Source of the DNA: an uncultured Mycoplasma sp.
Lineage (GTDB): Bacteria; Bacillota_I; Bacilli_A; RF39; UBA660
Assembly (NCBI GenBank): GCA_947646115.1
Contig: CANSFH010000003.1
Location: 16,078 to 80,077 of the forward strand
Direction of reading: 5' to 3'
Length of the DNA stretch: 64,000 nt
The notes under the pieces: model-generated
The model's database searches: none
Told to the model about the DNA's origin: nothing
What the model saw: only the letters and a program-made list of their open reading frames with translations
Shown: one piece after another, positions 5,462-46,225 of the stretch
Layout of the letters: every line of letters begins with the position of its first letter
Position numbering within the stretch: position 1 is the stretch's first letter
Made by a program: the position numbers and the translations under genes

Positions 5462-6610
5462 TTATCCTCTAGAAACACTACCAGGATTTTCGTCTAGTTC
5501 TTCGCCATTATGCTTTTTAAATATTTCACCATAAGCAATTTCATAAGATGCACGAATAACTTTTTCTAATTGTGGTAATTCAGCAACCAAAATATTTCCA
5601 GAGTTTTCAAGATTTTCAAAAAAGTGTTTTAATGTAGCTATGTTATTTTCATTGGCAACCGGATCTTCTTCGAGTTTTTGGATAGCAGCATTTAATATTG
5701 TAGGAACATTAGCAATATTAACATTTCTAACAGGTGTATTTGGTCCTACTTCAATATCATCACTTTTAAGTACTTTCTCTGGTAAGTGAACATTGCCATT
5801 ATCATCTAATAAAGTATAATCTCCAGCTGGCACACTTCTAAAAATATGAAAGCCAAACATATCAGTATTAGTATTTTCGAACCAAGATACAGTTTTCAAT
5901 CCTAGATTTAATACGCCTCCACAAGAACTATAAAAATATGAACCATAAAATAGATTATTAATATTTATTAAATAGTCATCACTTACTCTTTTTGCTAATT
6001 CTTTTTCTTCTTCTATCTTTTTTTTAGCAGCATAAGAAATTAATTCAGGAAACAACTCTATATCATCTCCGTTTTTTCTGATACTTTCATTAATTCTACG
6101 TTGCAAAGAGCGCACTAATTCATATTCATACTCTTTTCGATCTTCATATTTTAAATCATATAAAGGTAGCCAAGTTTTAGGATTAAATTGGGGTTTTGTT
6201 CCACTACTTAATACAATACTATCATCTATAAAGTCCACTGGGTGCGTTAACATTAAATTAATATCAATTAAAGATTTATCTAGAACTCCACCAATACTAT
6301 ATTTTCCAATAAATCCACATAATATTATAAATCTATTTTTATCTTTGCCACATATTTCATAAAGTTGATAAAGTTTCTCGCCTAAATATCCATATTCATC
6401 TAAAAGCATCATATTTGTCGTTCCGTCGTATTCAGCATATTCCATAAAATCTTCAGCATCGGGACCTTCAAGGTATTTGCCTACTGCATAAGATATTATA
6501 AAATTTAAAAAATCTTCATCACCTTTAAAGTTATTAATATCACCAGCAGTATAAGCATCAATTATTTCTTCTACGCTATAACTTTTATTCATAAAATCTA
6601 TTTTTAACAT
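5462..6610 (-). CDS. hypothetical cytoplasmic protein
   Basis: Long ORF with a GGGGGA Shine-Dalgarno. No motif recognised. Confidence 0.5.
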   Translation of the reverse strand: MLKIDFMNKSYSVEEIIDAYTAGDINNFKGDEDFLNFIISYAVGKYLEGPDAEDFMEYAEYDGTTNMMLLDEYGYLGEKLYQLYEICGKDKNRFIILCGFIGKYSIGGVLDKSLIDINLMLTHPVDFIDDSIVLSSGTKPQFNPKTWLPLYDLKYEDRKEYEYELVRSLQRRINESIRKNGDDIELFPELISYAAKKKIEEEKELAKRVSDDYLININNLFYGSYFYSSCGGVLNLGLKTVSWFENTNTDMFGFHIFRSVPAGDYTLLDDNGNVHLPEKVLKSDDIEVGPNTPVRNVNIANVPTILNAAIQKLEEDPVANENNIATLKHFFENLENSGNILVAELPQLEKVIRASYEIAYGEIFKKHNGEELDENPGSVSRG

Positions 6611-6772: not shown

Positions 6773-7306
6773 CTAATTATTAATCCAGTATCTTTTAAGT
6801 TCTTCTTTATCTTTTTTGATAGTGTTTTCTAAAAAACCACCACAATTTTCAATAACTTTACAACTGGCAATATTTTTTATATTACAAGTAATTAAAACTC
6901 TTTTTATATCTAGTTTTTTAGTTTCTTCTAAAGCAAGTTTTAAACCTTCAGTGCCATATCCTTTTTTTCTTTCACTTGGTCTTATAGAATAACCAATGTG
7001 ACCAGCAAAATTTAGTAAAAAATCATTTAGTTCATGACGAATATTATACATACCTAAAACTGTATTGTCACTATTTCTAACTAAAATATAGGTTGTAGCG
7101 GGTACTCTATTAGGAAGCAAATCTTCTCCTTTACTTTCTTTATTTATTTTTAGAAGCCAATCATCAAAGTTATTAAATGATTCTAAACTAGCCATACCCG
7201 CATATTGCCATGGAGTGTTTTTATCTTGTTCTTCTATTTCTTTTAGCATTGCAAGAATATCTTCATCGTAATCTTTTATAGCTTTTATAAGTTTTAAATC
7301 ATTCAT
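6773..7306 (-). CDS. GNAT family N-acetyltransferase (COG3981-like)
   Basis: Matches the family pattern: IRHELNDFLLNFAGHIGYSIRPSERKKGYGTEGLKLAL...ITCNIKNIASCKVIENCGG. Confidence 0.8.
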   Translation of the reverse strand: MNDLKLIKAIKDYDEDILAMLKEIEEQDKNTPWQYAGMASLESFNNFDDWLLKINKESKGEDLLPNRVPATTYILVRNSDNTVLGMYNIRHELNDFLLNFAGHIGYSIRPSERKKGYGTEGLKLALEETKKLDIKRVLITCNIKNIASCKVIENCGGFLENTIKKDKEELKRYWINN

Positions 7307-9258: not shown

Positions 9259-11363
9259 TAACGTTTCACCTCAACCATTTCAAAACATTCGATAACATCA
9301 CCAATACGTATATCAGTATAGTTGTCTAGAGTAATACCACATTCAAAACCTTTTTTAACTTCCTTAACGCTATCTTTTTCTCTTTGAACTGATGCTATTT
9401 TACCAGTATATATTATTACACCATCACGAATAAGACGAGCTTCAGCATTATTTTTTACTAAACCATCAGTAATGTAGCTTCCTGCAATATTACCAACTTT
9501 AGAGAATTTAAAGATTCTTCTAATTTCTGCACTTCCTAAAACTTTTTCTTCAAATTCAGGATCTAACATACCTTTCATTGCAAGTTCTATTTCTTCAATA
9601 CACTTATAAATTATTGTGTAAAGACGAATATCTACATTGTATTCTTTAGCTATTTCTTTAGTATTATTAGATGGACTTACGTTAAAACCAATTATAATAG
9701 CGTTAGATGCATTTGCGAGGACAACATCACTTTCAGTAATAGTGCCAATTCCAGAGCGAATAACATTTACTTTTACACCAGCAACATCAATTTTAAGTAA
9801 ACTATTTTTAACAGCTTCTTCAGAACCTCGAACATCAGTTTTTAATACAACATTTATCTCTTTTTGACCTTCATTAATTTTGCTAAATAAATCATCAAGA
9901 GATATTATGTCTTTTTTATATTTATTTTCTTTAGCAGAAATGGCTCTTTTTTCAGCAATTTCTTTGGCTTCATGTTCAGTTTCAAAAGCCATAAATTTAT
10001 CGCCAGCACTTGGATTTTCATTTAAACCAGTAATTTCCACAGGAGTTCCTGGAGCAGCAGTAGTAATTGATTCGCCTAAATCGTTTTTCATAGTACGAAT
10101 TTTACCAAATGTAGTACCAACAACAATTGGATCTCCAAGACGAAGAGTACCATTAGTAATAAGTAAACTGGCTATACCACCAATATTTTTATCTTGGCGA
10201 GATTCGATTACAGATCCTACAGCATATCTACTTGGATTAGCTTTAAGTTCAGATATTTCACTTATAGCTAAAATTGTCTCTAATAATTTATCAATTCCCA
10301 TTCCAGTTTTAGCTGAAATATTTATAAACGGAATATTTCCTCCCCATGCTTCTGGTGTAATATTAAGTTCAGCCATTTCTGTCATAATACGGTCAGGGTT
10401 AGCATCTGCTTTATCCATTTTATTTACAGCAACAATAATAGGTACTTTAGCACTTAAAGCATGTTCTACTGCTTCTTTAGTTTGAGGCATAACACCATCA
10501 TCAGCTGCAACAATAATTATAACAATATCAGTTACACTAGCACCTCTAGCACGCATTTCTGTAAATGCCGCATGCCCTGGAGTATCAATAAAGGTTATTT
10601 TATTACCATTTGTTTCAATTTGATAAGCACCAATATGTTGGGTAATACCACCAAATTCCCCTTCGACTACACGAGAGTTTCTAATATAGTCAAGTAGGGT
10701 TGTTTTTCCATGGTCAACATGACCCATAATTGTTACAATTGGAGGACGAGCTACTAAATCAGTTTCATTATCAACGATCTCGTATTCTTCAAAGTTAGAT
10801 ACATCTTGAGTTTCTTCTCTTTTTAAAGTTTTATTATATTCTAATGCAACAATTTCAGCTTGTTCAAAGTCAATTGCATTATTTAATGATAGCATTAAAC
10901 CTAAACCCATTAATTTTTTGATAATATCAGTGCCACTTATATTTAGTTCGTTAGCTAAATCTCCTACAGTCATTCCATCTTTAAAAACAATAATATTTTC
11001 ATCTTTAGTGTTTTTCATTAATTTGTTTTTATTTTTATACATTTCTTTACGAAGACGAGAATAATCTTTAGATTCAACTTGATCTTTTTTCTTTTTTAGT
11101 TTTTGTTTCTTATCAGTAATATTTATATTTTTAGTAATATTACTTGATTCAACTATTTCATCTACAACTTCATCAATTGTATCTTCTTCATCATAAGAGT
11201 CTTCTTCAACTCCAATTAAGTTAATAGCATTATCGAGTGATATTACCTCATCTTCAGTTAAGAAATCCTCTCCATTTTTTACTTCCATTCCTAAGTCGTT
11301 ACATTTTTTTAATATTTCTGCAACGCTTAAGTTTACATCACTTGCATATTCTTTTACAGTCAT
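9258..11363 (-). CDS. infB: translation initiation factor IF-2
   Basis: [20 protein letters not shown] and NKMD G-domain motifs. Operon context. Confidence 0.95.
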
Positions 11364-13950: not shown

Positions 13951-15836
13951 TAATTATTATTTTTAGGTTTAGTGTAGTTAATAATAGTAGTAGGTTTTAA
14001 TTCTCTTTTTAATGTTAAAGGTTTTAAATCAAGGCTAGTTAATCCAGTCTCATCAAAATACATATCTGCGGCCATTGCGCCTCTTTCGCGATTAACTCTA
14101 CCCCAAGTTGTAACTTGGCATACGCTTTGTGTTAAATATATTTTACTGCGATGTGAATGACCTAATAAGCTAAAATCATAATCTCTAAACTTTTGCCTAA
14201 ATACTGATTCAGTATCATTTTTAATTCCTATATTGGGATGCGCTACAAGAAGATGAAGTCTATCACTCTTTTTTCTTCTAAATGTTAAATCAGCATAATC
14301 ATAGCCTAAAAACATAAAGTCATTACGATGCTCTGTAAAATATTTTAGAAAGTCTACTCCTAAATACAAAGTTTCTTGCTCGTGATTTCCTCCTAAAATA
14401 AGATGCATAATGGGTGAAGAAGGTATTTTTTCGATAGAATCAAAAACAAGATCTTTAATTCTTTCATATTCTTCTTTACTAAAACAACCTTTATTTTTAT
14501 ATGCATAATCACAAAAGTCTCCGAGATTGATAATCATGTCAACTTCATTTTTATCACAGTACTCAAGTAATCTTTTATAATTATCAATAAAATTTTCAGT
14601 TATAAAGTCACGGATATGAGCATCAGCAATAGAGACTATCTTTAGGGGTTTACTATTATCTGGAAGAATAAAATTAAATGTGCCACCTCTTTTAATTAAA
14701 GGAGAAGTTATTTTAAAAATAGGATTATTAATATCAAGCCCAACTATTTCAATATTAATGCTTCTTTTAAGATGTAAAATATGTTCTATTAATTCTCCTA
14801 CTGTAATATCGAAATTTTGTTTTTTTAGTATTTCTATTAAAGTAAATGCTGAACACTCTCCAGTAAATAAAGCTTCTAAAATTACGGCTTCAATTTTAGC
14901 TTTTCTTTTGGCTAATTTTTTTTGACTATCTAATTCATAAAGTCTTGATTTGTATTTTAGACGATATGCTTCCTTTGCTTCTTCTAACTGTGCGGCTTTG
15001 GCTCTTTCATCATCTAATTCTTTTTTTATTGCTTCAATTCTTTCTTCAAGTTCTTTTATAACTCTCCTAAATTCAGTTTTTATAGCATTAACTCTATCTT
15101 CACTTATTTCTTTTTCGCCTGTTCTCATTTGCTTTTTTAATGAAGATATTCTATTATTTAAGTTATTATTTGCTTTGACAAGATCATCATTACTTGATGA
15201 TAAAGCGGTATTTTCTATAGTAATGGCGAATAAATTTTGCTGTAATGCATCTATTTTGCCTGAACTATCTTTTAGGCTTTCTTCCAATTCTATTATTTTT
15301 CTTCTTTTGGCCTTATTACTTTTAGTTAAACTTTCTATGTTATCTTCCAGTTTAGCTAGTGTTGTTTCTTTTTCCCTTAAAGCGTCTTTTAGTTGAGCGA
15401 GCATTTTAGTTAAGTCTTCTGGTTCTTTTGCAGTTTTTTCTTCCTTAACGCCTCTTATTTCAGATGCTTTGGCATTTAATTCTTCAATTATTTTAGTTAG
15501 TTCATCATCTATAGAACTGGATTGACTTGCGATTAAGTTTTGATAAAGGTCATAAATGCTAAAAATTCCAGTAATAATAGATTCACTTAATTTTTCATTA
15601 TTTCTTATACACAATGTAAGTGTAGAAATAACACTAACTATTAATTTTTTAGTTAATTTTAAGGGAAACTTATCTTTATTTAAATTATCTAAAATAGCTT
15701 TAATAAAATATTCTATAAAATCCTCTTTATGATATTTTTTATTAAGCGCTTTAAACATAGCTTCCATATCCAAATTGGATATATCTGTAGAATTTAAATA
15801 ACCTAGTATTTTAGTTTTATCTACTGGATTTATCAT
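13950..15836 (-). CDS. coiled-coil / wHTH-like / calcineurin-type metallophosphoesterase fusion protein
   Basis: Residues from about 110 to 330 are heptad-rich with a charged coiled-coil character. The C-terminus carries MPE motifs: SIADAHI (DxH), LGDFCD (GD), GGNHE (GNHE) and GHSHR (GH.H). Confidence 0.6.
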   Translation of the reverse strand: MINPVDKTKILGYLNSTDISNLDMEAMFKALNKKYHKEDFIEYFIKAILDNLNKDKFPLKLTKKLIVSVISTLTLCIRNNEKLSESIITGIFSIYDLYQNLIASQSSSIDDELTKIIEELNAKASEIRGVKEEKTAKEPEDLTKMLAQLKDALREKETTLAKLEDNIESLTKSNKAKRRKIIELEESLKDSSGKIDALQQNLFAITIENTALSSSNDDLVKANNNLNNRISSLKKQMRTGEKEISEDRVNAIKTEFRRVIKELEERIEAIKKELDDERAKAAQLEEAKEAYRLKYKSRLYELDSQKKLAKRKAKIEAVILEALFTGECSAFTLIEILKKQNFDITVGELIEHILHLKRSINIEIVGLDINNPIFKITSPLIKRGGTFNFILPDNSKPLKIVSIADAHIRDFITENFIDNYKRLLEYCDKNEVDMIINLGDFCDYAYKNKGCFSKEEYERIKDLVFDSIEKIPSSPIMHLILGGNHEQETLYLGVDFLKYFTEHRNDFMFLGYDYADLTFRRKKSDRLHLLVAHPNIGIKNDTESVFRQKFRDYDFSLLGHSHRSKIYLTQSVCQVTTWGRVNRERGAMAADMYFDETGLTSLDLKPLTLKRELKPTTIINYTKPKNNN

Positions 15837-15920
15837 ATAAATTACCTCATTTGATTATTCTAGCATAATGCTAAAAGCAAAGTCAATAGACTAAAGTTTA
15901 TTTTGATATATTTTCTAAAA

Positions 15921-15954
15921 TCTAAAAAAGTTTAGTAATTTTTATACTAAACTT
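15921..15954 (-). terminator. terminator of the ABC operon
   Basis: On the minus strand, AAGTTTAGTA-taaaaat-TACTAAACTT (10 bp) is followed by TTTTTAG. Confidence 0.6.
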
Positions 15955-18496
15955 AAATGTTTTCTTCGCGTAATGCTTCTAATATATTTTCTCGTTTTAT
16001 TTTTTTAGAAGCATAATTCATAGAAATAAGTACTATTAAAAATACAGCGATAATACTAATTATTAGAGATGACCAATTAATAATCATATTTGTATCAAAA
16101 ACGTTACCTATACTTAAAGAGATTAAATAATTTATAGCAAGTGATACAGGAATACCATATATTAGGGATTTAAGACCAAAGAATAAGCTTTCGAAGAATA
16201 ATAGTTTATTAAAGCCTTTAGGCGATAAACCAATGCTTCTTAACATTGCAAATTCTTTTCTTCGTAAATTGATATTGGTATTGATAGTATTTATTACACT
16301 TGTTACTCCGATTAAAGTAACTAAAGTGATAAAGCCATAAAATAATATTTTAACTGTTATAACTAAATTTTTAGTTTCAGCCATATCTATTTTGGGACTA
16401 TGAAAATAAATTGTCGAACTAAAAGCATTTTTCTTATTATCAATATCATCATCAATTGTTTTATAACTAGGAGTATTGATAATTAGACTAGCACATAAGT
16501 TATTATTGTACCCTATTTTTTCTTTGTATGTTGATTCATTAATTAAAACTAAAGGTGTTTCATCATATTTTGTGATTTTTAAGCCCCAAATATCATCATT
16601 TATGACTATAGCATCTAAACTTAAATTTAGATTTTTAGCTTCGTTTTTTAATTCTAAATTATATTTATCTTTACTATATATGGATAAAGAAATTGTTTTT
16701 CTTTCATCTTCATTATAGATTGTAAGATATTTATTATTTAATAAAACTGCTTCACTATTAGTAATTTTATTATAATCTTCATCAGCTAAAACTTTTATAA
16801 TATACCCAATATCATCAGTAGTATCAATTGATATACCATTAAATCTATGATAAAAATCTTGATATTTTTGCGTAAAATCGTTTTTCTTTAGATTGGTTCT
16901 GGTAACCCAAAGTTCATCTATAATTGTTAGGCTATCAGTAATATTATATTTTTGTTTTATTAAATTTATATCACTGGTAACTTCTTCAAGATTTCCTTGA
17001 ATATTAAAAGCAACATCATAATCATAATAATCAATGGAATCTGTAGCTTTTACAACATACTTTAAATATGAAGTAAATGTATTAAACATAACAATACTTA
17101 TAAATAAAGATATAATAGTTATACGATATTTTCGCTTATTTCGTTTAATATTTTTATAAGCGATATCTCCTTCGATGCCAAATAATTTATTTATAAATTT
17201 AGGAGTTTTAACTTCACGCTTCGATATTTTAATTTCATCATTTCCTCTAATTGCTTCAATAGGACTTACTTTACTACTACGTTTAGCTGGTAGATAAGCA
17301 CTTAAAAATATTACTAGAACCATAAATATTAGTGGCATAGCTAAATATAAAGGTTCAACACTAAATATGAAAGAATAACCAAAAGTATCTTTTAATAGGT
17401 TATTTATAATTTCAATAACTATGTATATTCCAAAGAATGCACTTATAATTCCTAATATAATTCCTATTAGCCCCACTATAACTGCTTCAAAGAATACTGA
17501 TGATCTAATTTGTTTATGGGTTGCGCCAATTGAAGCATACAAACCAAAACTTTTTTTACGCTCCATAGTTGAGATAGCAAATGAATTATAAATTACTATA
17601 ATACATCCGATCGATATTACTGATAAAGCAATTATAATTAGTGGTATAATAGTATCATTAACATTGGAATATTTTGTTGCACCATAATAATATAAAATAT
17701 TGGTATTAGCTCCATAATCAAGGTTATCACTTTTTAAGTTGTTTTCAATATCTTTTAAATATTCAAATGTTTTAGAAGGCTTTTTAAACTCTACAAAAGC
17801 ATTATAAATATTTTTAGGATTAGTGTTTAGAGAGAATGCCATATAACCAGCATCACTATAACTTTCATAAAAGGTTTTGTCTACAATTCCGACAATTGTA
17901 TAAGTCTTGGAAGTTATATCTTTTATTTCTTCACTGACATATGTATAATCATTTTCATTCCAAGAGCCAGGAAGTGAATAATTATGAGCAATATTTAAGC
18001 TGCTATCACTATCATAGCGAGTTCCTATATCAAGTGTTATAGTATCCCCAACTTTAACCTTTAATTTGCCATTACTAATTAAATGCTCACTTATAACAAG
18101 TTCATTACTATTTTCAGGTAATCTTCCATTAATTAAATTTAATGTTTCTAATAATTTAGAATTGGCTTCAGTAACATAAATATAGGGTTTAGCTTCATTA
18201 CCACTATTAAATTTAGCAAAGCCTAAAGGAACATAATAGTAGAATTTATCGATATTAATATTTTTAGAAATGATACTCATTTCCTTATCATTTAAATTAT
18301 TAAACATTGCGTGGAAAGATCCATAATTTTCGGCTGCTTTTTGTCTTTCCGTTGTAAGAACACTTGATATTAATAAACCTATTCCAACCATTAAAGCTGT
18401 AGATAAAGCAATACCTATGATTGTAACTAACGTTCTTTTTTTGTTCATTTTAAGATGTTTAATTGTTAGTTTATTTAGTATATTCATGATTGCCAC
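15953..18496 (-). CDS. ABC transporter permease, duplicated FtsX/MacB-type (two TM1-periplasmic domain-TM2-4 halves)
   Basis: 847 aa with two FtsX-like 3-TM bundles, each preceded by a TM helix and a domain of about 230 aa predicted to be extracytoplasmic. Overlaps the ATPase gene. Confidence 0.85.
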   Translation of the reverse strand: MAIMNILNKLTIKHLKMNKKRTLVTIIGIALSTALMVGIGLLISSVLTTERQKAAENYGSFHAMFNNLNDKEMSIISKNINIDKFYYYVPLGFAKFNSGNEAKPYIYVTEANSKLLETLNLINGRLPENSNELVISEHLISNGKLKVKVGDTITLDIGTRYDSDSSLNIAHNYSLPGSWNENDYTYVSEEIKDITSKTYTIVGIVDKTFYESYSDAGYMAFSLNTNPKNIYNAFVEFKKPSKTFEYLKDIENNLKSDNLDYGANTNILYYYGATKYSNVNDTIIPLIIIALSVISIGCIIVIYNSFAISTMERKKSFGLYASIGATHKQIRSSVFFEAVIVGLIGIILGIISAFFGIYIVIEIINNLLKDTFGYSFIFSVEPLYLAMPLIFMVLVIFLSAYLPAKRSSKVSPIEAIRGNDEIKISKREVKTPKFINKLFGIEGDIAYKNIKRNKRKYRITIISLFISIVMFNTFTSYLKYVVKATDSIDYYDYDVAFNIQGNLEEVTSDINLIKQKYNITDSLTIIDELWVTRTNLKKNDFTQKYQDFYHRFNGISIDTTDDIGYIIKVLADEDYNKITNSEAVLLNNKYLTIYNEDERKTISLSIYSKDKYNLELKNEAKNLNLSLDAIVINDDIWGLKITKYDETPLVLINESTYKEKIGYNNNLCASLIINTPSYKTIDDDIDNKKNAFSSTIYFHSPKIDMAETKNLVITVKILFYGFITLVTLIGVTSVINTINTNINLRRKEFAMLRSIGLSPKGFNKLLFFESLFFGLKSLIYGIPVSLAINYLISLSIGNVFDTNMIINWSSLIISIIAVFLIVLISMNYASKKIKRENILEALREENI

Positions 18497-19172
18497 CTAC
18501 TCGTTCATCAGATATGATTTTACCATCTTCAATAGTTATAATTCTTTTAGCATTTAAAGCTAAATTTTTATCGTGGGTAATCATTATAATTGTTTGACCA
18601 AATTTTTCATTTGATACTTTTAAAAGTTCCATAATCTCGGTGCTTGCTTTAGAATCTAAGTTCCCTGTTGGTTCATCAGCGAGTAAAAGTGCGGGATGAT
18701 TCATTAAAGCACGGCCAATTGAAACACGTTGTTGCTGACCTCCTGATAATTCATTAGGTAAATGATTAACTCTCTTTTCAAGGCCTAAAGTTTCAATTAA
18801 TTCATTTAAGTATTTTTGATCTGGTTTAGCGCCATCTAATAAAACTGGTAAAGTAATATTTTCTTTAACATTTAAAATAGGTATAAGATTATAAAATTGA
18901 TAAATTAATCCTACTTCACGACGTCTAAAGATTGCTAAATTATTTTCATTTAATTTATAAACATCTTTACCATTTAAGTAAACTTTACCACTTGTTGGTG
19001 TATCTACTCCACCTAATATGTGAAGTAAAGTAGATTTACCAGAACCACTAGCTCCAACAATAGCAACAAAGTCTCCTTTTTCCACATTAAAACTTACATT
19101 ATCTAGAGCATTAACTTTAATTGAACCACTAGTATAAGTTTTACATAAATTTTCAACTTTTAAAATTTCCAT
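18471..19172 (-). CDS. ABC transporter ATP-binding protein (MacB/LolD/BceA-like)
   Basis: Walker A GASGSGKST, signature LSGGQQQRV, Walker B LLLADEPTG. Confidence 0.9.
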   Translation of the reverse strand: MEILKVENLCKTYTSGSIKVNALDNVSFNVEKGDFVAIVGASGSGKSTLLHILGGVDTPTSGKVYLNGKDVYKLNENNLAIFRRREVGLIYQFYNLIPILNVKENITLPVLLDGAKPDQKYLNELIETLGLEKRVNHLPNELSGGQQQRVSIGRALMNHPALLLADEPTGNLDSKASTEIMELLKVSNEKFGQTIIMITHDKNLALNAKRIITIEDGKIISDERVGGNHEYTK

Positions 19173-19194
19173 ATAAATTTTCCTTTCTGAAATA

Positions 19195-19229
19195 ATTATA
19201 TAATTTTAATGTGACTTAAGAGTGACTTA
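19195..19229 (-). promoter_or_regulatory. candidate promoter of the ABC operon with response-regulator-type direct repeats
   Basis: Minus-strand TATAAT at 19200-19195. At 19211-19218 and 19222-19229 the plus strand reads GTGACTTA-aga-GTGACTTA (TAAGTCAC x2 on the minus strand). These are perfect 8-bp direct repeats with 11-bp periodicity covering the -35 region. Confidence 0.45.
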
Positions 19230-19303
19230 TTTAATTACAATTTTGTCATTTATATACCATATTTTTAGCTAAATTTCAAGAAAAAATTTACCTATATTTT
19301 TAA

Positions 19304-19333
19304 TAGACTTTAGCCTATTTTATATATTATAAT
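19304..19333 (+). promoter_or_regulatory. sigma-A-type promoter of the candidate toxin mRNA
   Basis: TAGACT (19304-19309), an 18-nt spacer, then TATAAT (19328-19333). The predicted start is near G19341, exactly where the long-range helix begins. Confidence 0.45.
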
Positions 19334-19340
19334 TAATATA

Positions 19341-19579
19341 GAGATGCCAGTGGTGTTTATCCTCAAGTCCAATTAAATTTTTTTTAAATTAAAATAGACT
19401 GGAGGTGATGTCCGTATGTTTAAGGAGAAAGATGGAATATTTGGTTATTCTAGTTGTACTATTAGTACTTATTCTTCCTTCAAAGAAAGACAGATAACAA
19501 AAGAACACCATATCAGTTTTGATAAGGTGTTCATTAAACCCAATTTGGACTAGAGAACACCAATAGGCATCTCTTTTTT
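19341..19579 (+). other. candidate type I toxin mRNA with 5'-3' end pairing
   Basis: 19341-19372 pairs with 19545-19573: GAGAUGCC/GGCAUCUC, then AGUGGUGUU/AACACCAAU (8 of 9), then CUCAAGUCCAA/UUGGACUAGAG (10 of 11). The helix is followed by UUUUUUA. It encloses two SD-led small ORFs and an internal hairpin at 19503-19532. Confidence 0.45.
19432..19497 (+). CDS. candidate type I toxin peptide, 21 aa (MEYLVILVVLLVLILPSKKDR)
   Basis: AAGGAGA Shine-Dalgarno 4 nt before the ATG at 19432. A single hydrophobic helix is followed by a basic tail. An in-frame upstream ATG at 19408 would give 29 aa, but its GGAGG is only 2 nt away. Confidence 0.35.
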   Translation: MEYLVILVVLLVLILPSKKDR

Positions 19580-19607
19580 ATGTCCTACAGAAAGTTTTTT
19601 TCTTTCT
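19497..19607 (-). ncRNA. candidate antisense (antitoxin) RNA overlapping the 3' end of the toxin mRNA
   Basis: Minus-strand promoter TTGCAT (19643-19638), 18-nt spacer, TATAAT (19619-19614). Minus-strand terminator GAACACC-N16-GGUGUUC (19532-19503) followed by UUUUGUU. The predicted RNA of about 110 nt is fully complementary to 19497-19579 of the plus transcript. Confidence 0.35.
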
Positions 19608-19721
19608 AGTTATATTATATACTCTTTTTAATACAAAATGCAAGAAAAACTTATATACTATAAATACTTTTATTATTTAATTCAATTATTAGCTTTATAT
19701 AAATAATTATTTGCCTCTTTA

Positions 19722-20825
19722 TTATTTTATAATACTTGTTGGTATTCTTTTTCTAGTTAAAACCTCATTATATATTTTGGTATGATGCCTTTTTTCACGT
19801 TTAGATAATTGAGGCAGCGCATCTAACGGAAGGAATCTTGAATGTTGGTACTCGCAAATTGTAACTTTGTCCGGTTTTATTTGTGATAATATATTTAATG
19901 TTTCTTTTATATCATCAATAGTTTCTGTTGGTAATCCCGATATGATTGTTAAAACAAAATTTCTTGGATAAAATCTTGATATATATCTTATAAAATCAAT
20001 AACTTCTTCTTTTGTATATCCTTTTTTAATCATTTCTAAAAGTCTATTACTAGCTGTTTCTAAACTTGCAAAAACAGTATTTAATTTTGTACTTAAAGCT
20101 AAAGCATCTTCTAAATGATATTTTATTGCATCTTTAAATGCTAAACCAGATATATCTAATTGTTTTATATTTGGCTGTTTTTCTATCAGTTCAATTATTT
20201 CTGGAAGTATGGGTTTATTATATAAATCTAAACCACATTGAGACAAATTAGTAGCTATTAGTGTTACTTTTCTAAATTCACTTTCATTAAAGAAATCAAT
20301 AAAATATTTAATTGATTCTAAATCAAGACTTTTTAAAGGATAACTTTGATAGGTTACTTTACAAAAAGCACAATTATTGAGACAACCATTACCAACATAA
20401 AAATCTACTGTACCATCTTCTTTACTATAAAAGCATGCTCCAAAAGCATCACTAATCCTATCAGAAAAAATATCAGAAATTGTTTGTAATATTAGATTAG
20501 GCTCGTTATGAGGTATAATATAGTCTATATTGTTGTCCATCCACAATTTAATATTATGAGAAAATTCTTCATCTTTAAAAGGTCGTGTAAAACATCCTGT
20601 AAGTATTGATATAGCATCTTTTTTCATCTTACTTATACACTTATTTATATAATTACCAATATAATTAATTTTATTTTCCGTACAAGCGCAAGTACCTGCA
20701 AATACTACAATATCAGCTTCACTTATATCTTCTGTTAGTATAAAATGTCTCTCTAAATTATTTCTAATATAATCATATTGATAATTAAAATCACAACTAA
20801 AATCTTCACTAATAAATATTTTCAT
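19722..20825 (-). CDS. radical SAM enzyme, methylthiotransferase-like (UPF0004 N-domain + radical SAM core, no TRAM domain)
   Basis: GCLNNCAFC matches CxxxCxxC. The N-terminal domain has three spaced Cys (FSCDF, GTCACT, TGCFT) and ADIVVFAGTCA, like the MiaB/RimO/MtaB N-domain. At 367 aa it ends without a TRAM-like segment. Confidence 0.75.
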   Translation of the reverse strand: MKIFISEDFSCDFNYQYDYIRNNLERHFILTEDISEADIVVFAGTCACTENKINYIGNYINKCISKMKKDAISILTGCFTRPFKDEEFSHNIKLWMDNNIDYIIPHNEPNLILQTISDIFSDRISDAFGACFYSKEDGTVDFYVGNGCLNNCAFCKVTYQSYPLKSLDLESIKYFIDFFNESEFRKVTLIATNLSQCGLDLYNKPILPEIIELIEKQPNIKQLDISGLAFKDAIKYHLEDALALSTKLNTVFASLETASNRLLEMIKKGYTKEEVIDFIRYISRFYPRNFVLTIISGLPTETIDDIKETLNILSQIKPDKVTICEYQHSRFLPLDALPQLSKREKRHHTKIYNEVLTRKRIPTSIIK

Positions 20826-20899
20826 AAAATCCCCTTATTTGAACTTTAAAAGTTCTAAATTAAGGAACATTTTAACATATATTTAAATTTAAATCTAGA

Positions 20900-22084
20900 C
20901 TAAATAATATTTTTATAAAAAATTATTTTAAAGCTTGTATATTTACCGACTTCACTTGTAACTTCAATACTTCCGTTTTGCTTTTCAAAAATAAGTTTAG
21001 CCATATTAAGACCTATTCCCACACTATTTTTAGAACTATTAGTGCTATAAAATCTTTTAAAAATGTTTTTAATATCACTTTCTTTAATACCTTTACCATT
21101 ATCTTTAATAGTTATAGCTTTATATAAAGGATTATTTTCGCCTGTAATTTTAATCGTTCCCTTATTATCTAAATGTTCAATAGCATTTTTTATAATATTA
21201 GTAAAAGCTTCTTTTGTCCAATTTATATCACAGTTTAAATTAAAGTTTAAATTTTCTATTACAAGTTCAATATTTTTTAATTCTATAGATATATTTAAAG
21301 GTTCTAAAGAACTAGCAATTAAATCATAAGCTCTAATATTTTCTTTTTTGAGGATAGCTGAACCACTATCAAGTTTACTATATTTAAGAAGAGTTGTAAT
21401 AAGCCATTCCATACGTTCTAATTCTTTAGTTTCTTTATTTAAAAATTCTCTATATTCTGTTTCAGATAAATTACTGGATTTTAAGATATCATTAGTAAGC
21501 ATTAAAGCTGTTAGTGGTGTTTTTAATTGATGTGAAATATCTTCTAGAGTATTCATTAAATATACTTGTTCATTTCTCTCATATTCAGTAAGTTCTTTTA
21601 ACTTAATGGTTACTTTATAAATATCATTTTTTAAGATGGATAATTCATCTTCATTATAATCAGCTATGTTAAGCTCGTAGGAGCCTTGTAAGATTTTATT
21701 TAAATAACTATTAATAGTAATTATTTCTTTCTTCATTTTTAAATTATGTAATAAAAAATAAAGAGCGAAAATAGATACTATAATTAAATAGATAGATGTG
21801 GTAATAATAATTGTATTTAATTGCACTTTCCTAATATGAGATATTTCTGTTAAAGTTTTAGAGTTAATGCCGTATTTTGGTAAAACATTAAGAGTATTAT
21901 TACTATAGATAATTGTATCTAATATAGCGTCTTCACTTTCTGGATATTTTTCAATTAGATTACTAGTAATGTTATTAAGAGTTCTAAATAAATAATTTTC
22001 ATATGTTTTAGAAATAGTGATATTAAGTATTATTAAAAGAATAAAAGTTATAGTTATTAAAATAAAATATTTTTTAGTTTTCAT
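20900..22084 (-). CDS. sensor histidine kinase (two TM helices with a loop of about 65 aa between them)
   Basis: H-box EDISHQLKTPLTAL, N-box IKNAIEH, G-boxes DNGKGI and GIGLNMA. Confidence 0.85.
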   Translation of the reverse strand: MKTKKYFILITITFILLIILNITISKTYENYLFRTLNNITSNLIEKYPESEDAILDTIIYSNNTLNVLPKYGINSKTLTEISHIRKVQLNTIIITTSIYLIIVSIFALYFLLHNLKMKKEIITINSYLNKILQGSYELNIADYNEDELSILKNDIYKVTIKLKELTEYERNEQVYLMNTLEDISHQLKTPLTALMLTNDILKSSNLSETEYREFLNKETKELERMEWLITTLLKYSKLDSGSAILKKENIRAYDLIASSLEPLNISIELKNIELVIENLNFNLNCDINWTKEAFTNIIKNAIEHLDNKGTIKITGENNPLYKAITIKDNGKGIKESDIKNIFKRFYSTNSSKNSVGIGLNMAKLIFEKQNGSIEVTSEVGKYTSFKIIFYKNII

Positions 22085-22748
22085 TTGCTTTATACCCTAG
22101 TCCTCGTACAGTTAAAATTATTTTAGGATTGGTTGGATCTTCCTCTATTTTTTCACGTATTCTTTTAATATATACTGTAAGAGTATTATCATTAACATAT
22201 GCTTCATCAGTATCCCATATTTCAGCTAGAATAGTATCTCGAGTGTAAACCATTCCAGGATGCATAAACATAATTAATAAAATTTTATATTCTAAAGCAG
22301 TTAAAAATACCTTTTTATTATCTTTATATACACTTGCATCAGTTAAATTAATAGTAATATTTTTTATAGTTAATGTGCTTTTATTTTCAGTTTTATTTAC
22401 TCTTCTTAAAACGGAATTAATTCGGCTTATCAATTCTCTAGTTTTAAAAGGTTTAGTTATATAATCGTCCGCGCCTTTATCTAGAGCTTCTACAGTAGTT
22501 GTTTCAAAGTCATTAGCAGTTAAAAAAATGGTTGGGATATCTTTATGTTTAATTTGGTTAAATAAGTCAAGGCCATTATAATCAGGGAGATTTATATCTA
22601 AAAGTAATAAATCTATTGCATTATTAGCGATTTTATTTAAGGCTTCCTCACCATTATTTGCTTGTAATACTTTAAAGTTTTCTTTTTCTAAACAAAAACT
22701 TAAGCCACTTAATATTGTAGTATCATCTTCAACTAATAAAATAGTCAT
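22074..22748 (-). CDS. OmpR-family response regulator
   Basis: Receiver domain (LLVEDD, LLLDINLPDYNG, K in ITKPF) plus a winged-helix output domain (LTALEYKILL...TVRGLGY). Confidence 0.9.
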   Translation of the reverse strand: MTILLVEDDTTILSGLSFCLEKENFKVLQANNGEEALNKIANNAIDLLLLDINLPDYNGLDLFNQIKHKDIPTIFLTANDFETTTVEALDKGADDYITKPFKTRELISRINSVLRRVNKTENKSTLTIKNITINLTDASVYKDNKKVFLTALEYKILLIMFMHPGMVYTRDTILAEIWDTDEAYVNDNTLTVYIKRIREKIEEDPTNPKIILTVRGLGYKANEN

Positions 22749-22807
22749 AATATCACCTAAATAAAGTATAACATTTTAAGGGTGTATTTGCTATTACAAT
22801 TTAGTCA

Positions 22808-23737
22808 TTATTTTAATCTTCTGACGCGATAACCCATACTTTCTAGCTCTTGATAAAAAGATTCATAATTTTCTTTTTTTATTTTAAAATAATTATCAAG
22901 CATTTTATCAACGATATTTTCCAATTCAGCTAATTCAAAATCACAAATACTTTGCTTGTAATATAAATGTTTTACTCTATCGCAATACTGATTAAAAGCA
23001 CTAACTCCTAAACTTTTTTCTAACATATTATGATTACCACTTATCAAAGATTCAAGAATTAAAGGATATAATGAATTATAAAAATATTCAACAAGGTAAG
23101 ATTTATCTTCATACTTTTGAGGTAATTTAAAGCGACTTAAACTTTCAGGGATAACTCCACCTATTCTGATGTATTCTTCTAAAACTTTTGTAGCAATAAA
23201 ATCACTTATTAATTCCATCGTTTCGGTATTAGGAAAACCATGAGATACTATTAATCTATCCTCTGTTAAACATAAAACGCTTATCAAAAGTGCATGTGTT
23301 AGTTCATGAATAATAGTCTTTAGGTCAATCACAAAAATGGAAAGCAAGACAACCTTTTTATGTTTTAATACTTTATTAGAATCGTACTCTAATACATTAG
23401 TAAATAGTGCACTATCTTCTTCAAGAAATTGGGTAATTTGAGCATTTTCGTAATGACTTTTTAATTTTTGTCTTAAATACTCATTATATTTTTGATATTC
23501 ATTTCCTACTTTATATAAAGGACTATTTTTAGGCATCGCTAAAGGATGAAATAAATAATATTCTGGAATAAAATAAACAAAATTAAGATTAGTTAATGTA
23601 AATGATATGTAATCTTTGTGTCCTTCAAATATATTAACAAAAGCTTGAATAAGTTTAGGCATAATAATTCTAATGGCGTTATCTAACTCCCCAGTATATT
23701 TTCTATTGTAACCTTTAATACTATCAAACTGTACCAT
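22808..23737 (-). CDS. hypothetical HExxH protein (putative metallopeptidase)
   Basis: IIHELTHALL motif. The ATG at 23737 is preceded by AAGGTG. The track start at 23746 is the GTG inside that Shine-Dalgarno. Confidence 0.5.
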   Translation of the reverse strand: MVQFDSIKGYNRKYTGELDNAIRIIMPKLIQAFVNIFEGHKDYISFTLTNLNFVYFIPEYYLFHPLAMPKNSPLYKVGNEYQKYNEYLRQKLKSHYENAQITQFLEEDSALFTNVLEYDSNKVLKHKKVVLLSIFVIDLKTIIHELTHALLISVLCLTEDRLIVSHGFPNTETMELISDFIATKVLEEYIRIGGVIPESLSRFKLPQKYEDKSYLVEYFYNSLYPLILESLISGNHNMLEKSLGVSAFNQYCDRVKHLYYKQSICDFELAELENIVDKMLDNYFKIKKENYESFYQELESMGYRVRRLK

Positions 23738-24915: not shown

Positions 24916-25019
24916 AATTTTTTCACCTGTTACTATTATATTATATTTTTTTTAATTTTGCAAATTTCTCTAATATTCAAGTAGACCCAGAATATTATTA
25001 TATAGATAGGAGGAATACT

Positions 25020-25391
25020 ATGCATAACATAAATTTAGAAGGATTTCCTCCTAGTTTAGATCCTCAAGTCTTTGCCTTTTTAGCAGTTTTAATAGGTTCA
25101 GCTTGCGTTGGAGATTATACAGCAAACGAACAAAATAGTTTTGGTAACTGGTTAATTTTGGTAGGACAATTCATTTTAACAACCGCAGCTCAACAACAAT
25201 TAATTGAAGCAAGATTAGAATCTAACAATATAAATATTAATAGTAAAGAACATAAAAATGGTGGTAGTTATTACTCTAATAATAGTAAAAGTAATCAAAC
25301 TCAAAGACCAGAAGTAGATTTTTTACTGGATGCTGTAGAAAAACTTCAAAGAGAACTAAATAACTTAAAAAACCAAAAAGAAAAAGGTTAA
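25020..25391 (+). CDS. hypothetical protein
   Basis: GGAGG Shine-Dalgarno. Hydrophobic N-terminal half and a Q/N/S-rich C-terminal half. No family recognised. Confidence 0.5.
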   Translation: MHNINLEGFPPSLDPQVFAFLAVLIGSACVGDYTANEQNSFGNWLILVGQFILTTAAQQQLIEARLESNNININSKEHKNGGSYYSNNSKSNQTQRPEVDFLLDAVEKLQRELNNLKNQKEKG

Positions 25392-30317: not shown

Positions 30318-30446
30318 TTAATAATATAGTATTCCACCTAGAATTATTGCGAGTAGTATGTATAGTACTATGATTAAGAATGCACCATTTTGTAAGAATC
30401 CTCCACAACAATTATTGGTTTGTACTTTGTCTTTACAACATCCCAT
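30318..30446 (-). CDS. YjcZ-like tiny sporulation membrane protein, 42 aa
   Basis: My own translation: MGCCKDKVQTNNCCGGFLQNGAFLIIVLYILLAIILGGILYY. GGAGGTG Shine-Dalgarno. A Cys/Gly-rich head is followed by F.L(I/V)VL(F/Y)ILL(I)I, as in the YjcZ family. Terminator at 30291-30319. Confidence 0.55.
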   Translation of the reverse strand: MGCCKDKVQTNNCCGGFLQNGAFLIIVLYILLAIILGGILYY

Positions 30447-30475
30447 GGGACACCTCCTATTATATTTTTAAAAGA

Positions 30476-30568
30476 CTAAATGAATGCTCCTACTATGATG
30501 ATTAGTAAGATAAATAGTACTAAGATCATGGCAGCACTGAAGCCATTTCCACATCCGCAGTTATTCAT
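30476..30568 (-). CDS. YjcZ-like tiny sporulation membrane protein, 30 aa
   Basis: My own translation: MNNCGCGNGFSAAMILVLFILLIIIVGAFI. AAGGAGG Shine-Dalgarno. Close to the YjcZ-family pattern. Confidence 0.6.
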   Translation of the reverse strand: MNNCGCGNGFSAAMILVLFILLIIIVGAFI

Positions 30569-45869: not shown

Positions 45870-46225
45870 AAAATATTCATAAGCCATGTTCTGTTCCCTT
45901 TACGGGCGACAAATATTTATCTACTAGTTAACCTAGTCCCTTACGCCATTTTTGTTCTTTTGTAAGAGCTCTCCTACCAAATTTGGATTTCTCACTCGTG
46001 GGGTTTACCGCGTTCCATTTCCACCGTTTCCAGTTTGTACGTTACTATGGCACTTTATCCTTACTAATTCCATAAGTTATACTTTTAGGAATGTTTAGGG
46101 CCGTTAGATTACTCTACCTTAGGTTATTTTTTCCCTAAGCACGAACACTACAGTCATTACAGAGCTGTGTGAGCATGGACTTTCCTCTACATAATATTTA
46201 TGCAGCATTTGTCCGAATATTATTA
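45870..46225 (-). ncRNA. rnpB: RNase P RNA, bacterial type B
   Basis: The minus strand contains GAGGAAAGUCCAUGCUC, GGAACGCGGUAAACCCCACGAGUGAGAAAUCCAAAUUUGGUAGG and ACAGAACAUGGCUUAUGAAUAUU. The terminal AAUAUUC/GAAUAUU can form P1. Ends are approximate to about 10 nt. Confidence 0.9.

Follow-up and report, generated by a model that had tools for sequence, protein, structure and literature searches.

What does the gap between a radical S-adenosylmethionine (SAM) gene and the ATPase gene of an ATP-binding cassette (ABC) transporter encode in an uncultured Mycoplasma sp. of the RF39 lineage? The gap, 549 bp long, holds an RNA module and lies in a stretch of 64,000 nt (GenBank assembly GCA_947646115.1, contig CANSFH010000003.1, positions 16,078 to 80,077), hereafter called the window and numbered from its first letter. 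An earlier reading of these letters, referred to below as the original prediction, held that the gap hides a type I toxin-antitoxin-like module, i.e., a short mRNA for a hydrophobic toxin together with an antisense RNA. Of this overall proposal the layout and a predicted control of ribosome binding at the RNA level have stood up, whereas no named family is matched and the antisense promoter is weak. In our models the most economical explanation of the 5'-3' helix, the promoter and the Shine-Dalgarno (SD) sequences is a self-contained plus-strand gene for a structured RNA of ~239 nt with a predicted translational switch. We tentatively conclude that the gap holds a type I toxin-antitoxin-like module of an undescribed family, a reading that we hold with somewhat less than even confidence. 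The plus-strand elements on which the argument depends, including two small open reading frames (ORFs), are the following.

19304-19333, plus strand: candidate sigma-A promoter TAGACT-N18-TATAAT (TAGACT at 19304-19309, TATAAT at 19328-19333), 10/12 matches.
A19340 or G19341, plus strand: predicted transcription start.
19341-19579, plus strand: predicted structured transcript and candidate toxin mRNA of ~239 nt, bounded by the promoter and the U6 tract.
19341-19372, plus strand: 5' arm of the end-to-end helix, with anti-SD1 (CCUC at 19361-19364 and AGUC at 19366-19369) and box 1.
19352-19357, plus strand: box 1, GGUGUU.
19401-19409, plus strand: SD1, GGAGGTGAT, a perfect 9-nt complement of the anti-SD, 10 nt (9 in haplotype 2) before the ATG at 19416.
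19416-19553, plus strand: ORF45, hydrophilic, 45 codons, overlapping ORF21 and in a mok-like position.
19422-19428, plus strand: SD2, AAGGAGA, 3-4 nt before the ATG at 19432.
19432-19497, plus strand: ORF21, MEYLVILVVLLVLILPSKKDR, 21 codons, hydrophobic; candidate membrane peptide or toxin.
19474-19480, plus strand: anti-SD2, CUUCCUU, inside the 3' end of ORF21.
19503-19509, plus strand: box 2, GAACACC.
19526-19532, plus strand: box 3, GGUGUUC.
19545-19573, plus strand: 3' arm of the helix, with box 4; predicted to act as an anti-anti-SD.
19555-19561, plus strand: box 4, GAACACC.
19574-19579, plus strand: U6 tract, presumed from the sequence to be the 3' end.

The evidence rests first of all on the helix that joins the two ends of the predicted transcript. 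A plus-strand promoter with a start at about G19341 had been proposed, as had an interrupted helix followed directly by a U-run, and both were recovered; the promoter matches 10 of 12 positions, although such matches occur at chance density. The helix comprises 25 Watson-Crick pairs, with no G-U pair, between 19341-19372 and 19545-19573. When each 36-nt segment was compared with the sequence 150-290 nt downstream, at 10,617 positions across the 64 kb, this proved to be the best long-range duplex in the window, at -36.8 kcal/mol (mean -10.9, standard deviation 3.5), the next independent site reaching -28.1 kcal/mol. Its first paired base, G19341, lies at the predicted +1, 7 nt past TATAAT, and the U6 tract (T6 in the DNA) starts right after its last paired base. 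Folding of 19341-19580 alone, a check that had been suggested with the original prediction, gave a minimum free energy (MFE) of -68 kcal/mol with a z-score of -5.2 for the plus strand, and a z-score of -6.75 for the minus strand. Like the long helix, a 12-bp hairpin within the module is free of G-U pairs. Because both strands fold well and G-U pairs are lacking, structure alone does not tell the two apart; what points to the plus strand, by sequence, is the U-tract together with the SD motifs and the geometry of the promoter. It seems improbable that chance alone brought together the -10 element and the start of the helix, the end of the helix and the U6 tract, a unique SD, two anti-SDs and four boxes.

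The predicted folds suggest how such an RNA could switch. GGTGTTC occurs five times in the window, three of them within the 60 nt of 19503-19561, and with the GGTGTT at 19352 this gives four alternating GGUGUU/GAACACC boxes. In the MFE fold (A, -68.0 kcal/mol) boxes 1 and 4 and boxes 2 and 3 are paired, while forced pairing of 1 with 2 and 3 with 4 (fold B) yields -63.3 kcal/mol, i.e., +4.7. In the free full-length RNA the core of SD1, GAGG, is engaged only in a local 3-bp hairpin (P ~0.6). If 19497-19579 is masked, which mimics binding of an antisense RNA, the SD1 region GACUGGAGG pairs with CCUC (19361-19364) and AGUC with P ~1.0. The mean probability that SD1 is unpaired is then 0.21, against 0.39 in the free full-length RNA; for SD2 it is 0.02 with the 3' end masked, where CUUCC (19474-19478) pairs with it, against 0.29 at full length. 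This bears out the earlier suggestion that the CUUCCUU stretch could mask the SD of the toxin, since it pairs with AAGGAG in the nascent or 3'-masked folds. RNAs truncated at their 3' end, which resemble nascent transcripts, and fold B close both SDs in the same way. As the 3' arm GGACUAGAG mimics the SD1 region, it would behave as an anti-anti-SD, and the full-length RNA is predicted to be the ON state and the nascent or antisense-bound RNA the OFF state. The hok-like end pairing that had been claimed is thus present as a helix, but folding predicts that it releases SD1 instead of locking the mRNA off. All these switch folds are thermodynamic predictions on a single sequence.

To judge from the sequence, either of the two small ORFs may be translated. 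The overlapping, SD-led, hydrophilic frame of 45 codons that had been likened to mok does exist, and it is preceded by the perfect SD1. The start of this 9-nt complement, GGAGGTGA, occurs only once in the window, at 19401, so that the stronger ribosome-binding site belongs to ORF45 and not to ORF21. The AAGGAGA that was said to lead ORF21 and the ORF itself are both present; their spacing is 3-4 nt, however, and the strongest SD serves ORF45. GGAGG is also found a short distance before the starts of no fewer than four other ORFs (at 25009, 30704, 30453 and 30577), namely two long ORFs (starts at 25020 and 30715) and two YjcZ-like small ORFs, with spacings of 6-8 nt for the latter. ORF21, in the +1 frame relative to ORF45, encodes 13 consecutive hydrophobic residues (12 in haplotype 3) followed by a KKDR tail. 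When both strands (128 kb) were screened for small ORFs that have >=11 hydrophobic residues in a row and start 3-11 nt behind an SD-like motif, three ORFs only were obtained, i.e., ORF21 and two tandem YjcZ-type small ORFs at 30318-30568. The tandem ORFs (30318-30446 and 30476-30568, both minus strand) have strong SDs and Cys/Gly-rich N-termini followed by a hydrophobic helix. The 30-aa product matches the model of the YjcZ family sporulation protein (NCBIfam TIGR01732; 24.6 bits, cutoff 21.35), and the 42-aa product has no family match. That the ORF21 peptide would be toxic we infer solely from its composition and from the regulatory design of the locus.

These data also bear on an alternative that we consider unlikely: the locus could be an antisense- and structure-regulated gene for a small protein that is not a toxin, the switch controlling ORF45 and/or a harmless ORF21 peptide, perhaps together with the radical SAM enzyme. 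The best ribosome-binding site serves the hydrophilic ORF45 and the logic of the switch centers on SD1, both as expected for such a gene, and the YjcZ-type ORFs indicate that genuine harmless small membrane proteins occur in this genome. However, the sequestration of two SDs combined with an antisense RNA at the 3' end is typical of toxin genes.

For the toxin-antitoxin-like module that we favor, an antisense partner has to be sought on the minus strand, where the following elements were recognized.

19503-19532: hairpin in which box 2 (GAACACC) pairs with box 3 (GGUGUUC); read on the minus strand, UUUUGUU (19502-19496) comes next and completes an intrinsic terminator for the radical SAM mRNA and/or the antisense RNA.
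19496-19607, minus strand: candidate antisense RNA of ~110 nt, overlapping the plus RNA by 84 nt (19496-19579).
19614-19643, minus strand: weak candidate antisense promoter TTGCAT-N18-TATAAT, from sequence.

The proposed antisense RNA with its terminator has fared unevenly: the hairpin and UUUUGUU are there, whereas the promoter is weak and the terminator fits the radical SAM gene equally well. The minus-strand U-tract overlaps the stop codon of ORF21, and an RNA of 110 nt starting at ~19607 folds at -29.6 kcal/mol (z-score -3.35). As a separate transcript, the antisense RNA is a candidate suggested by these elements. The promoter and terminator scan called no terminator-like site in 18500-20500, and reading of the sequence revealed no other hairpin with a U-tract between the radical SAM stop (19722) and the 19503-19532 hairpin. 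The radical SAM mRNA, therefore, most likely ends at the 19532-19503 hairpin as well, as far as the sequence tells. In that case its 3' untranslated region (UTR) would be complementary to the final 84 nt of the plus RNA, with or without a separate promoter, and the antisense partner may be this 3' UTR. The claimed 3'-overlap layout of TxpA/RatA and BsrG/SR4 would apply to the candidate antisense RNA, whose predicted overlap of 84 nt agrees with the Gram-positive layout given by T1TAdb. A minus-strand transcription attenuator built of GGUGUUC/GAACACC/GGUGUUC, formally possible, was rejected; it has no obvious target, and the ABC operon has its own response-regulator-dependent promoter.

The overlap with the 3' UTR, together with the very strong structure, could equally suit a non-coding structured small RNA or a sense/antisense pair, e.g., one acting on the stability or termination of the 3' end of the radical SAM mRNA, in which both ORFs would be incidental. 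The codon usage of both ORFs, which is like that of spurious small ORFs, and the poor spacing of the SD of ORF21 are in line with this explanation, which we nevertheless regard as rather improbable. Neither strand matches Rfam, a perfect 9-nt SD stands 9-10 nt before a start codon, no fewer than four further GGAGG motifs of this genome being found close before ORF starts, and the anti-SD elements are complementary to both SDs. Moreover, the 3-nt deletion of haplotype 3 destroys the hairpin at 19456-19468 and yet keeps both frames.

For the toxin-antitoxin-like module we propose the following sequence of events. Judged from the sequence, transcription would start 7 nt past a perfect -10 element and would end at the U6 tract right after the 25-bp helix that joins the ends. 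According to the folding, the 5' arm would be free in the nascent RNA, its CCUC/AGUC closing SD1 GACUGGAGG and the CUUCC in ORF21 closing SD2. The 3' arm, once made, would capture the 5' arm, leaving SD1 in a weak 3-bp hairpin and ORF45 translatable; ribosomes traversing the SD2/anti-SD2 helix could then permit initiation at ORF21, as mok does for hok. A minus RNA ending at 19532-19503, provided by the radical SAM 3' UTR or by the weak promoter at 19643-19614, may pair with the 3' 84 nt of the plus RNA. The 5' arm would thereby be released and SD1 re-closed, and the long duplex would be a likely substrate of RNase III. The strain comparison, finally, shows that a dispensable MiaB-like radical SAM gene accompanies the module in an insertion of 1.6 kb, which is delimited as follows.

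19272-20895, 1624 bp: accessory insertion with the radical SAM gene and the RNA module, flanked by the stop codon of the histidine kinase and the promoter of the ABC operon.

The insertion carries the whole RNA module including its plus-strand promoter. In two strains with an empty site (locus L073, 3380-3500, and locus L080, 440-570) the kinase stop TTTAGTCTA is joined directly to TAGCTAAA, 103 nt before the ABC start; compared with these empty sites, the 1624-bp insertion has no target duplication and no evident terminal repeats. The block from 19230 to ~20900 is near-identical in lineages whose flanks (the ABC genes, the kinase N-terminus and the nusA region) differ from the window by 12-20%, and this contrast in sequence indicates that the 1.6-kb block spread recently by homologous recombination. 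The use of strain divergence as a measure of purifying selection on the RNA was consequently rejected: the near-identity covers the whole block 19230-20900 down to the synonymous positions of the radical SAM gene, reflects the young age of the block and says nothing about selection on the RNA. A 1-nt deletion (T20470) frameshifts the radical SAM gene in four independent samples (L075, L077, L078 and L079), in which the RNA module is intact; the radical SAM gene is therefore dispensable.

Within the species, comparison of ~25 contigs yielded three haplotypes of the module, which differ by U8 to U7 at 19378-19385, the deletion of T19407, the deletion of A19371, A19461G and a 3-nt deletion at 19460-19462. 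All three 1-nt indels lie upstream of both start codons, and the sole indel inside the ORFs is that of 3 nt, which keeps the frame. A19461G is synonymous in ORF21 and causes I16V in ORF45, so that ORF45 occurs with I16V and with a deletion of I16 and is open in all three haplotypes. The 3-nt deletion of haplotype 3 abolishes the small hairpin at 19456-19468 with both reading frames kept. By sequence, this variation is compatible with coding constraint. For the regulated small-protein gene discussed above, the open ORF45 in every haplotype and the physical linkage of the module to the radical SAM gene within a single insertion are points in its favor; against it, the module is convergent with the radical SAM gene and not co-transcribed with it, and persists where that gene is frameshifted.

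The insertion also invites a bolder idea, namely that the module is an addiction device for a non-mobile cassette, with the 3' UTR of the radical SAM mRNA as the antitoxin. We consider this very improbable. By pairing with the last 84 nt of the plus RNA, the 3' UTR would free the 5' anti-SD that the end-to-end helix holds and so stop translation; were the 1.6-kb insertion lost or silenced, a 21-aa membrane peptide would be unleashed. This would explain both the near-identity of the cassette across lineages diverged by 12-20% and the intact module beside a decayed cargo gene. If true, the module would found a new type I family, in which the long-range switch is an "anti-anti-SD" and the antitoxin is embedded in an mRNA. 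The cassette, a natural and small one that has no transposition or integration genes, was spread by homologous recombination and kept its RNA module while the cargo decayed, makes the addiction idea testable.

Relatives of the module were sought widely. Further copies in the window or relatives beyond the same species, for which a search had been recommended with the original prediction, did not turn up, and no covariation was found, the sequences compared being three near-identical haplotypes. Rfam gave no match to the module, whether 2 kb were searched at E <=1 or the entire window at gathering thresholds; searches of 371 nt at E <=10 on both strands returned noise only (<=18 bits, E >=0.4). 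The window has a single true Rfam match, RNase P class B (45876-46220), and a tRNA/tmRNA scan found none. As had been anticipated for the peptide, no named family was recognized: Pfam, NCBIfam, PADLOC and PHROGs gave nothing above threshold for ORF21, ORF30, ORF45 and the minus-strand ORF40, the best peptide score being that of Ibs_toxin (Pfam) against ORF21 (12.1 bits, cutoff 27, E 0.21), which reflects composition only. Searches by blastn of phage and plasmid collections gave none, and nhmmer and blastn against 45 fetched loci found the same species only. The exact 5'-arm pattern in viral contigs and the two-arm pattern in metagenome and viral contigs produced only chance matches in high-G+C coding DNA, the metagenome contigs scanned being evidently without the source species. 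In the window the arms are single-copy, with no near-match at <=3 mismatches, and their flanks (ATATA ... TTTTT) show no target-site duplication.

Members of the radical SAM family were located at 38 loci of related Bacilli metagenome-assembled genomes (MAGs), where their neighbors are not conserved, and none of 24 downstream regions of these homologues has a comparable long-range helix or an SD-led hydrophobic ORF; no viral relative of the protein was found. Among 5.8 billion proteins ORF45 has no relative outside its own 90% cluster. Both results, i.e., the isolation of ORF45 and the lack of a small ORF or comparable structure beside the radical SAM homologues in the 24 related loci, speak against the regulated small-protein gene. 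A precursor and maturase of a ribosomally synthesized and post-translationally modified peptide were set aside, as the enzyme is MiaB/RimO-like without a SPASM domain, its homologues have no conserved small-ORF partner, and its gene is convergent with the ORFs. For 6S RNA and other housekeeping RNAs with paired ends there was no Rfam match, and some strains within the species lack the module.

A number of observations weigh against the toxin-antitoxin-like module. The 16 promoter-like matches found in the window, against 14 expected at 27% G+C, are not an enrichment; the matches themselves are at chance density and only the geometry of the promoter relative to the helix is meaningful. The plus RNA has no local terminator hairpin at its 3' end, so that termination would depend on the long-range helix. 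The antisense promoter had been called good, a judgement we cannot share: its -35 element TTGCAT matches 3/6, and the promoter scan does not call TTGCAT-N18-TATAAT. The radical SAM gene requires the minus-strand terminator in any case, and to assign it to that gene is at least as simple an explanation. The hydrophobic stretch of ORF21, 13 residues (12 in haplotype 3) as read from the sequence, is short for a membrane span, and the window has six runs of >=12 hydrophobic codons (second position T), most of them in frames that are not coding; as such runs are common in A+T-rich DNA, the hydrophobicity of ORF21 is by itself weak evidence. The spacing from SD2 to ORF21 (3-4 nt; 3 from GGAGA to ATG) is at the short edge of the range of 4-9 in 30 long genes, and codon-usage likelihood does not separate ORF21 and ORF45 from spurious small ORFs. 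The strain variation consists of five events only, in a very young segment, and with no homologue, paralogue or covariation found the support is confined to one species cluster. Finally, Watson-Crick pairs throughout the helix and the hairpin, together with equal folding of the minus strand, are also expected of an inverted repeat at the DNA level.

This last point leads to the explanation that the gap has no dedicated function and holds a relic inverted repeat (resembling a miniature inverted-repeat transposable element, or an inverted duplication) that was carried in by the radical SAM insertion and is combined with the terminator of the radical SAM gene, with promoter, SDs and ORFs having arisen by chance in DNA of 27% G+C. 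The absence of G-U among 25 + 12 helix pairs, the promoter-like sites at chance density, the frequent hydrophobic runs and a conservation that does not extend beyond one species, in a segment too young for selection to show, would all be in keeping with such a relic. Yet the arms have no second copy or near-match in the 64 kb and no target-site duplication beside them, and the coincidence of several independent features is improbable by chance. It seems, therefore, distinctly improbable that the gap is a relic, and we retain the toxin-antitoxin-like module as our tentative reading.

The genes around the module are all on the minus strand.

22748-22074, minus strand: OmpR-type response regulator.
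22084-20900, minus strand: histidine kinase.
19722-20825, minus strand: MiaB/RimO-like radical SAM gene without TRAM domain, cargo of the 1624-bp insertion, with a 3' UTR predicted to run antisense into the RNA module.
19172-18471, minus strand: ABC ATPase.
18496-15953, minus strand: FtsX/MacB-type permease.

With nusA and the gene for RNase P RNA class B, the window is chromosomal; its G+C content is 27%, and the closest relatives of the source bacterium are MAGs labelled "uncultured Bacilli" from the gut of rabbit, roe deer, goat and human. The ABC operon has a compact promoter of its own (TATAAT at 19200-19195, minus strand), so that ~450 bp of the gap is dispensable for the flanking genes. 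Over its -35 region lies an OmpR-type direct repeat, GTGACTTA in plus-strand letters, at 19212-19219 and 19222-19229 with a 10-bp period, 11 nt upstream of the TATAAT; this is probably the binding site of the response regulator. Strain differences occur at 19220 and 19228-19229, in or beside the repeat. The ABC ATPase and permease and the N-terminal sensor/transmembrane part of the kinase are present as alleles diverged by 12-20% (15800-19230 and 21200-22875, compared with L002, L046 and L069-L072), and by sequence comparison the ABC/kinase locus is a recombination mosaic. Transporter and kinase-sensor alleles that vary together would be in keeping with diversifying selection on a Bce-like module for the sensing and detoxification of peptides.

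The radical SAM family has UPF0004 and radical SAM domains but no TRAM domain, and scores far below the cutoffs for MiaB, MtaB and RimO. It is present in ~40 lineages of uncultured gut Bacilli, with different neighbors each time, and the relatives of the protein in the window are at <=52% identity. In three loci (L018, L019 and L033, at ~6120-6460) a small Cys-rich zinc-ribbon-like protein, unrelated to the RNA module, is encoded downstream of the radical SAM homologue in the same orientation. In another (L012) two near-identical tRNA-like sequences were noticed by reading downstream of the homologue, at approximately 6260-6340 and 7110-7190, each preceded by an identical promoter-like stretch.

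If confirmed, the module would represent a new orphan type I-like family in uncultured, very A+T-rich gut Bacilli. ORF21, with 21 aa, would be among the shortest Gram-positive toxin candidates, the 25-bp end-to-end helix would act as an anti-anti-SD, which is the reverse of the logic of hok and aapA1, and the antitoxin would possibly be embedded in the 3' UTR of a neighboring enzyme gene. A merely regulated small-protein gene or a relic repeat would be of modest interest.

As far as sequences can tell, the module belongs to no named family; signatures of Hok, Fst, Ibs and Bsr are lacking, and none of the antitoxin models of Rfam matches. The peptide had been placed in the Ibs/Fst/TisB class; the hydrophobic stretch with its KKDR tail agrees with this, but the Fst signature is lacking and the Ibs score stays below cutoff. 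With hok/mok/sok of plasmid R1 the module shares the pairing of 5' and 3' ends, an upstream overlapping frame with the better ribosome-binding site (ORF45 being mok-like), and alternative or metastable folds. Franch et al. are reported to have found in 1997 that the end pairing of hok (fbi) holds the full-length mRNA inert until its 3' end is processed (cited in PMC8594479). The end pairing of the module, in contrast, is predicted to free SD1 where that of hok locks the mRNA off. Sok acts at the 5' mok region, and the candidate antisense RNA of the module would act at the 3' end; ORF21 and ORF45 have no Hok_Gef domain in Pfam or NCBIfam, Rfam shows no Sok match, and the host is of Gram-positive type. 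Ibs/Sib of Escherichia coli offers a very short (19 aa), all-hydrophobic toxin and the sole Pfam model that scores against ORF21. This score of 12.1 bits is below the cutoff of 27, however, and Sib covers the whole ORF and the family is enterobacterial.

In par/Fst of Enterococcus faecalis, a helix sequesters the 5' end of the toxin mRNA RNA I (5'-UH), and the toxin has a PXXXG motif in its transmembrane helix and a conserved Trp before a charged tail (PMC7472228). The module resembles it in a predicted mRNA of ~230 nt, convergent candidate promoters, a hydrophobic helix with a charged C-terminal tail, and an extreme 5' end that lies in a helix from G19341 at the predicted +1, which is an analogy and not a homology. 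It differs in that ORF21 has no PXXXG, no Trp and no match to the Fst_toxin model of Pfam, and in that the two RNAs share no bidirectional terminator, the plus RNA ending at the helix and U6 and the minus RNA at 19503-19532. A comparison by eye with the DRa/DRb repeats gave only a 6-nt AGAAAG/CUUUCU match, which is at chance level. In aapA1/IsoA1 of Helicobacter pylori, a 5'-3' long-distance interaction and successive anti-SDs close the ribosome-binding site during transcription (PMC6733600). Its full-length mRNA is inactive whereas that of the module is predicted to be active, and the system has no sequence similarity to the module and belongs to another phylum.

By the working definition of T1TAdb, type I systems have mRNAs 150-400 nt long that encode usually hydrophobic peptides of 20-60 aa, together with antisense RNAs of 60-200 nt, which in Gram-positive families overlap the mRNA on its 3' side (PMC8594479). 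The module, with a predicted mRNA of ~239 nt, 21 aa, a candidate antisense RNA of ~110 nt and an 84-nt overlap, fits this layout: the predicted 19341-19579 transcript is within the length range, and ORF21 would be a small hydrophobic protein as described there. In the predicted layout it also resembles bsrG/SR4 and txpA/RatA of Bacillus subtilis, where the toxin mRNA and its antisense RNA converge and have their 3' ends in common, the toxin is a small hydrophobic peptide and the genes lie on accessory DNA. The peptides of these two systems have 38 and 59 aa, compared with 21 aa in ORF21. There is no sequence, Rfam or Pfam similarity, and unlike them the module has a 25-bp end-to-end helix that releases the 5' anti-SD in the predicted folds, two overlapping ORFs and an antisense RNA that may be the 3' UTR of a gene. 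In bsrG/SR4 the helix in which the SD is sequestered becomes longer when the antitoxin binds to the 3' end (PMC3834814), and this closing of an SD by binding at the 3' end is the same logic that folding predicts for the module.

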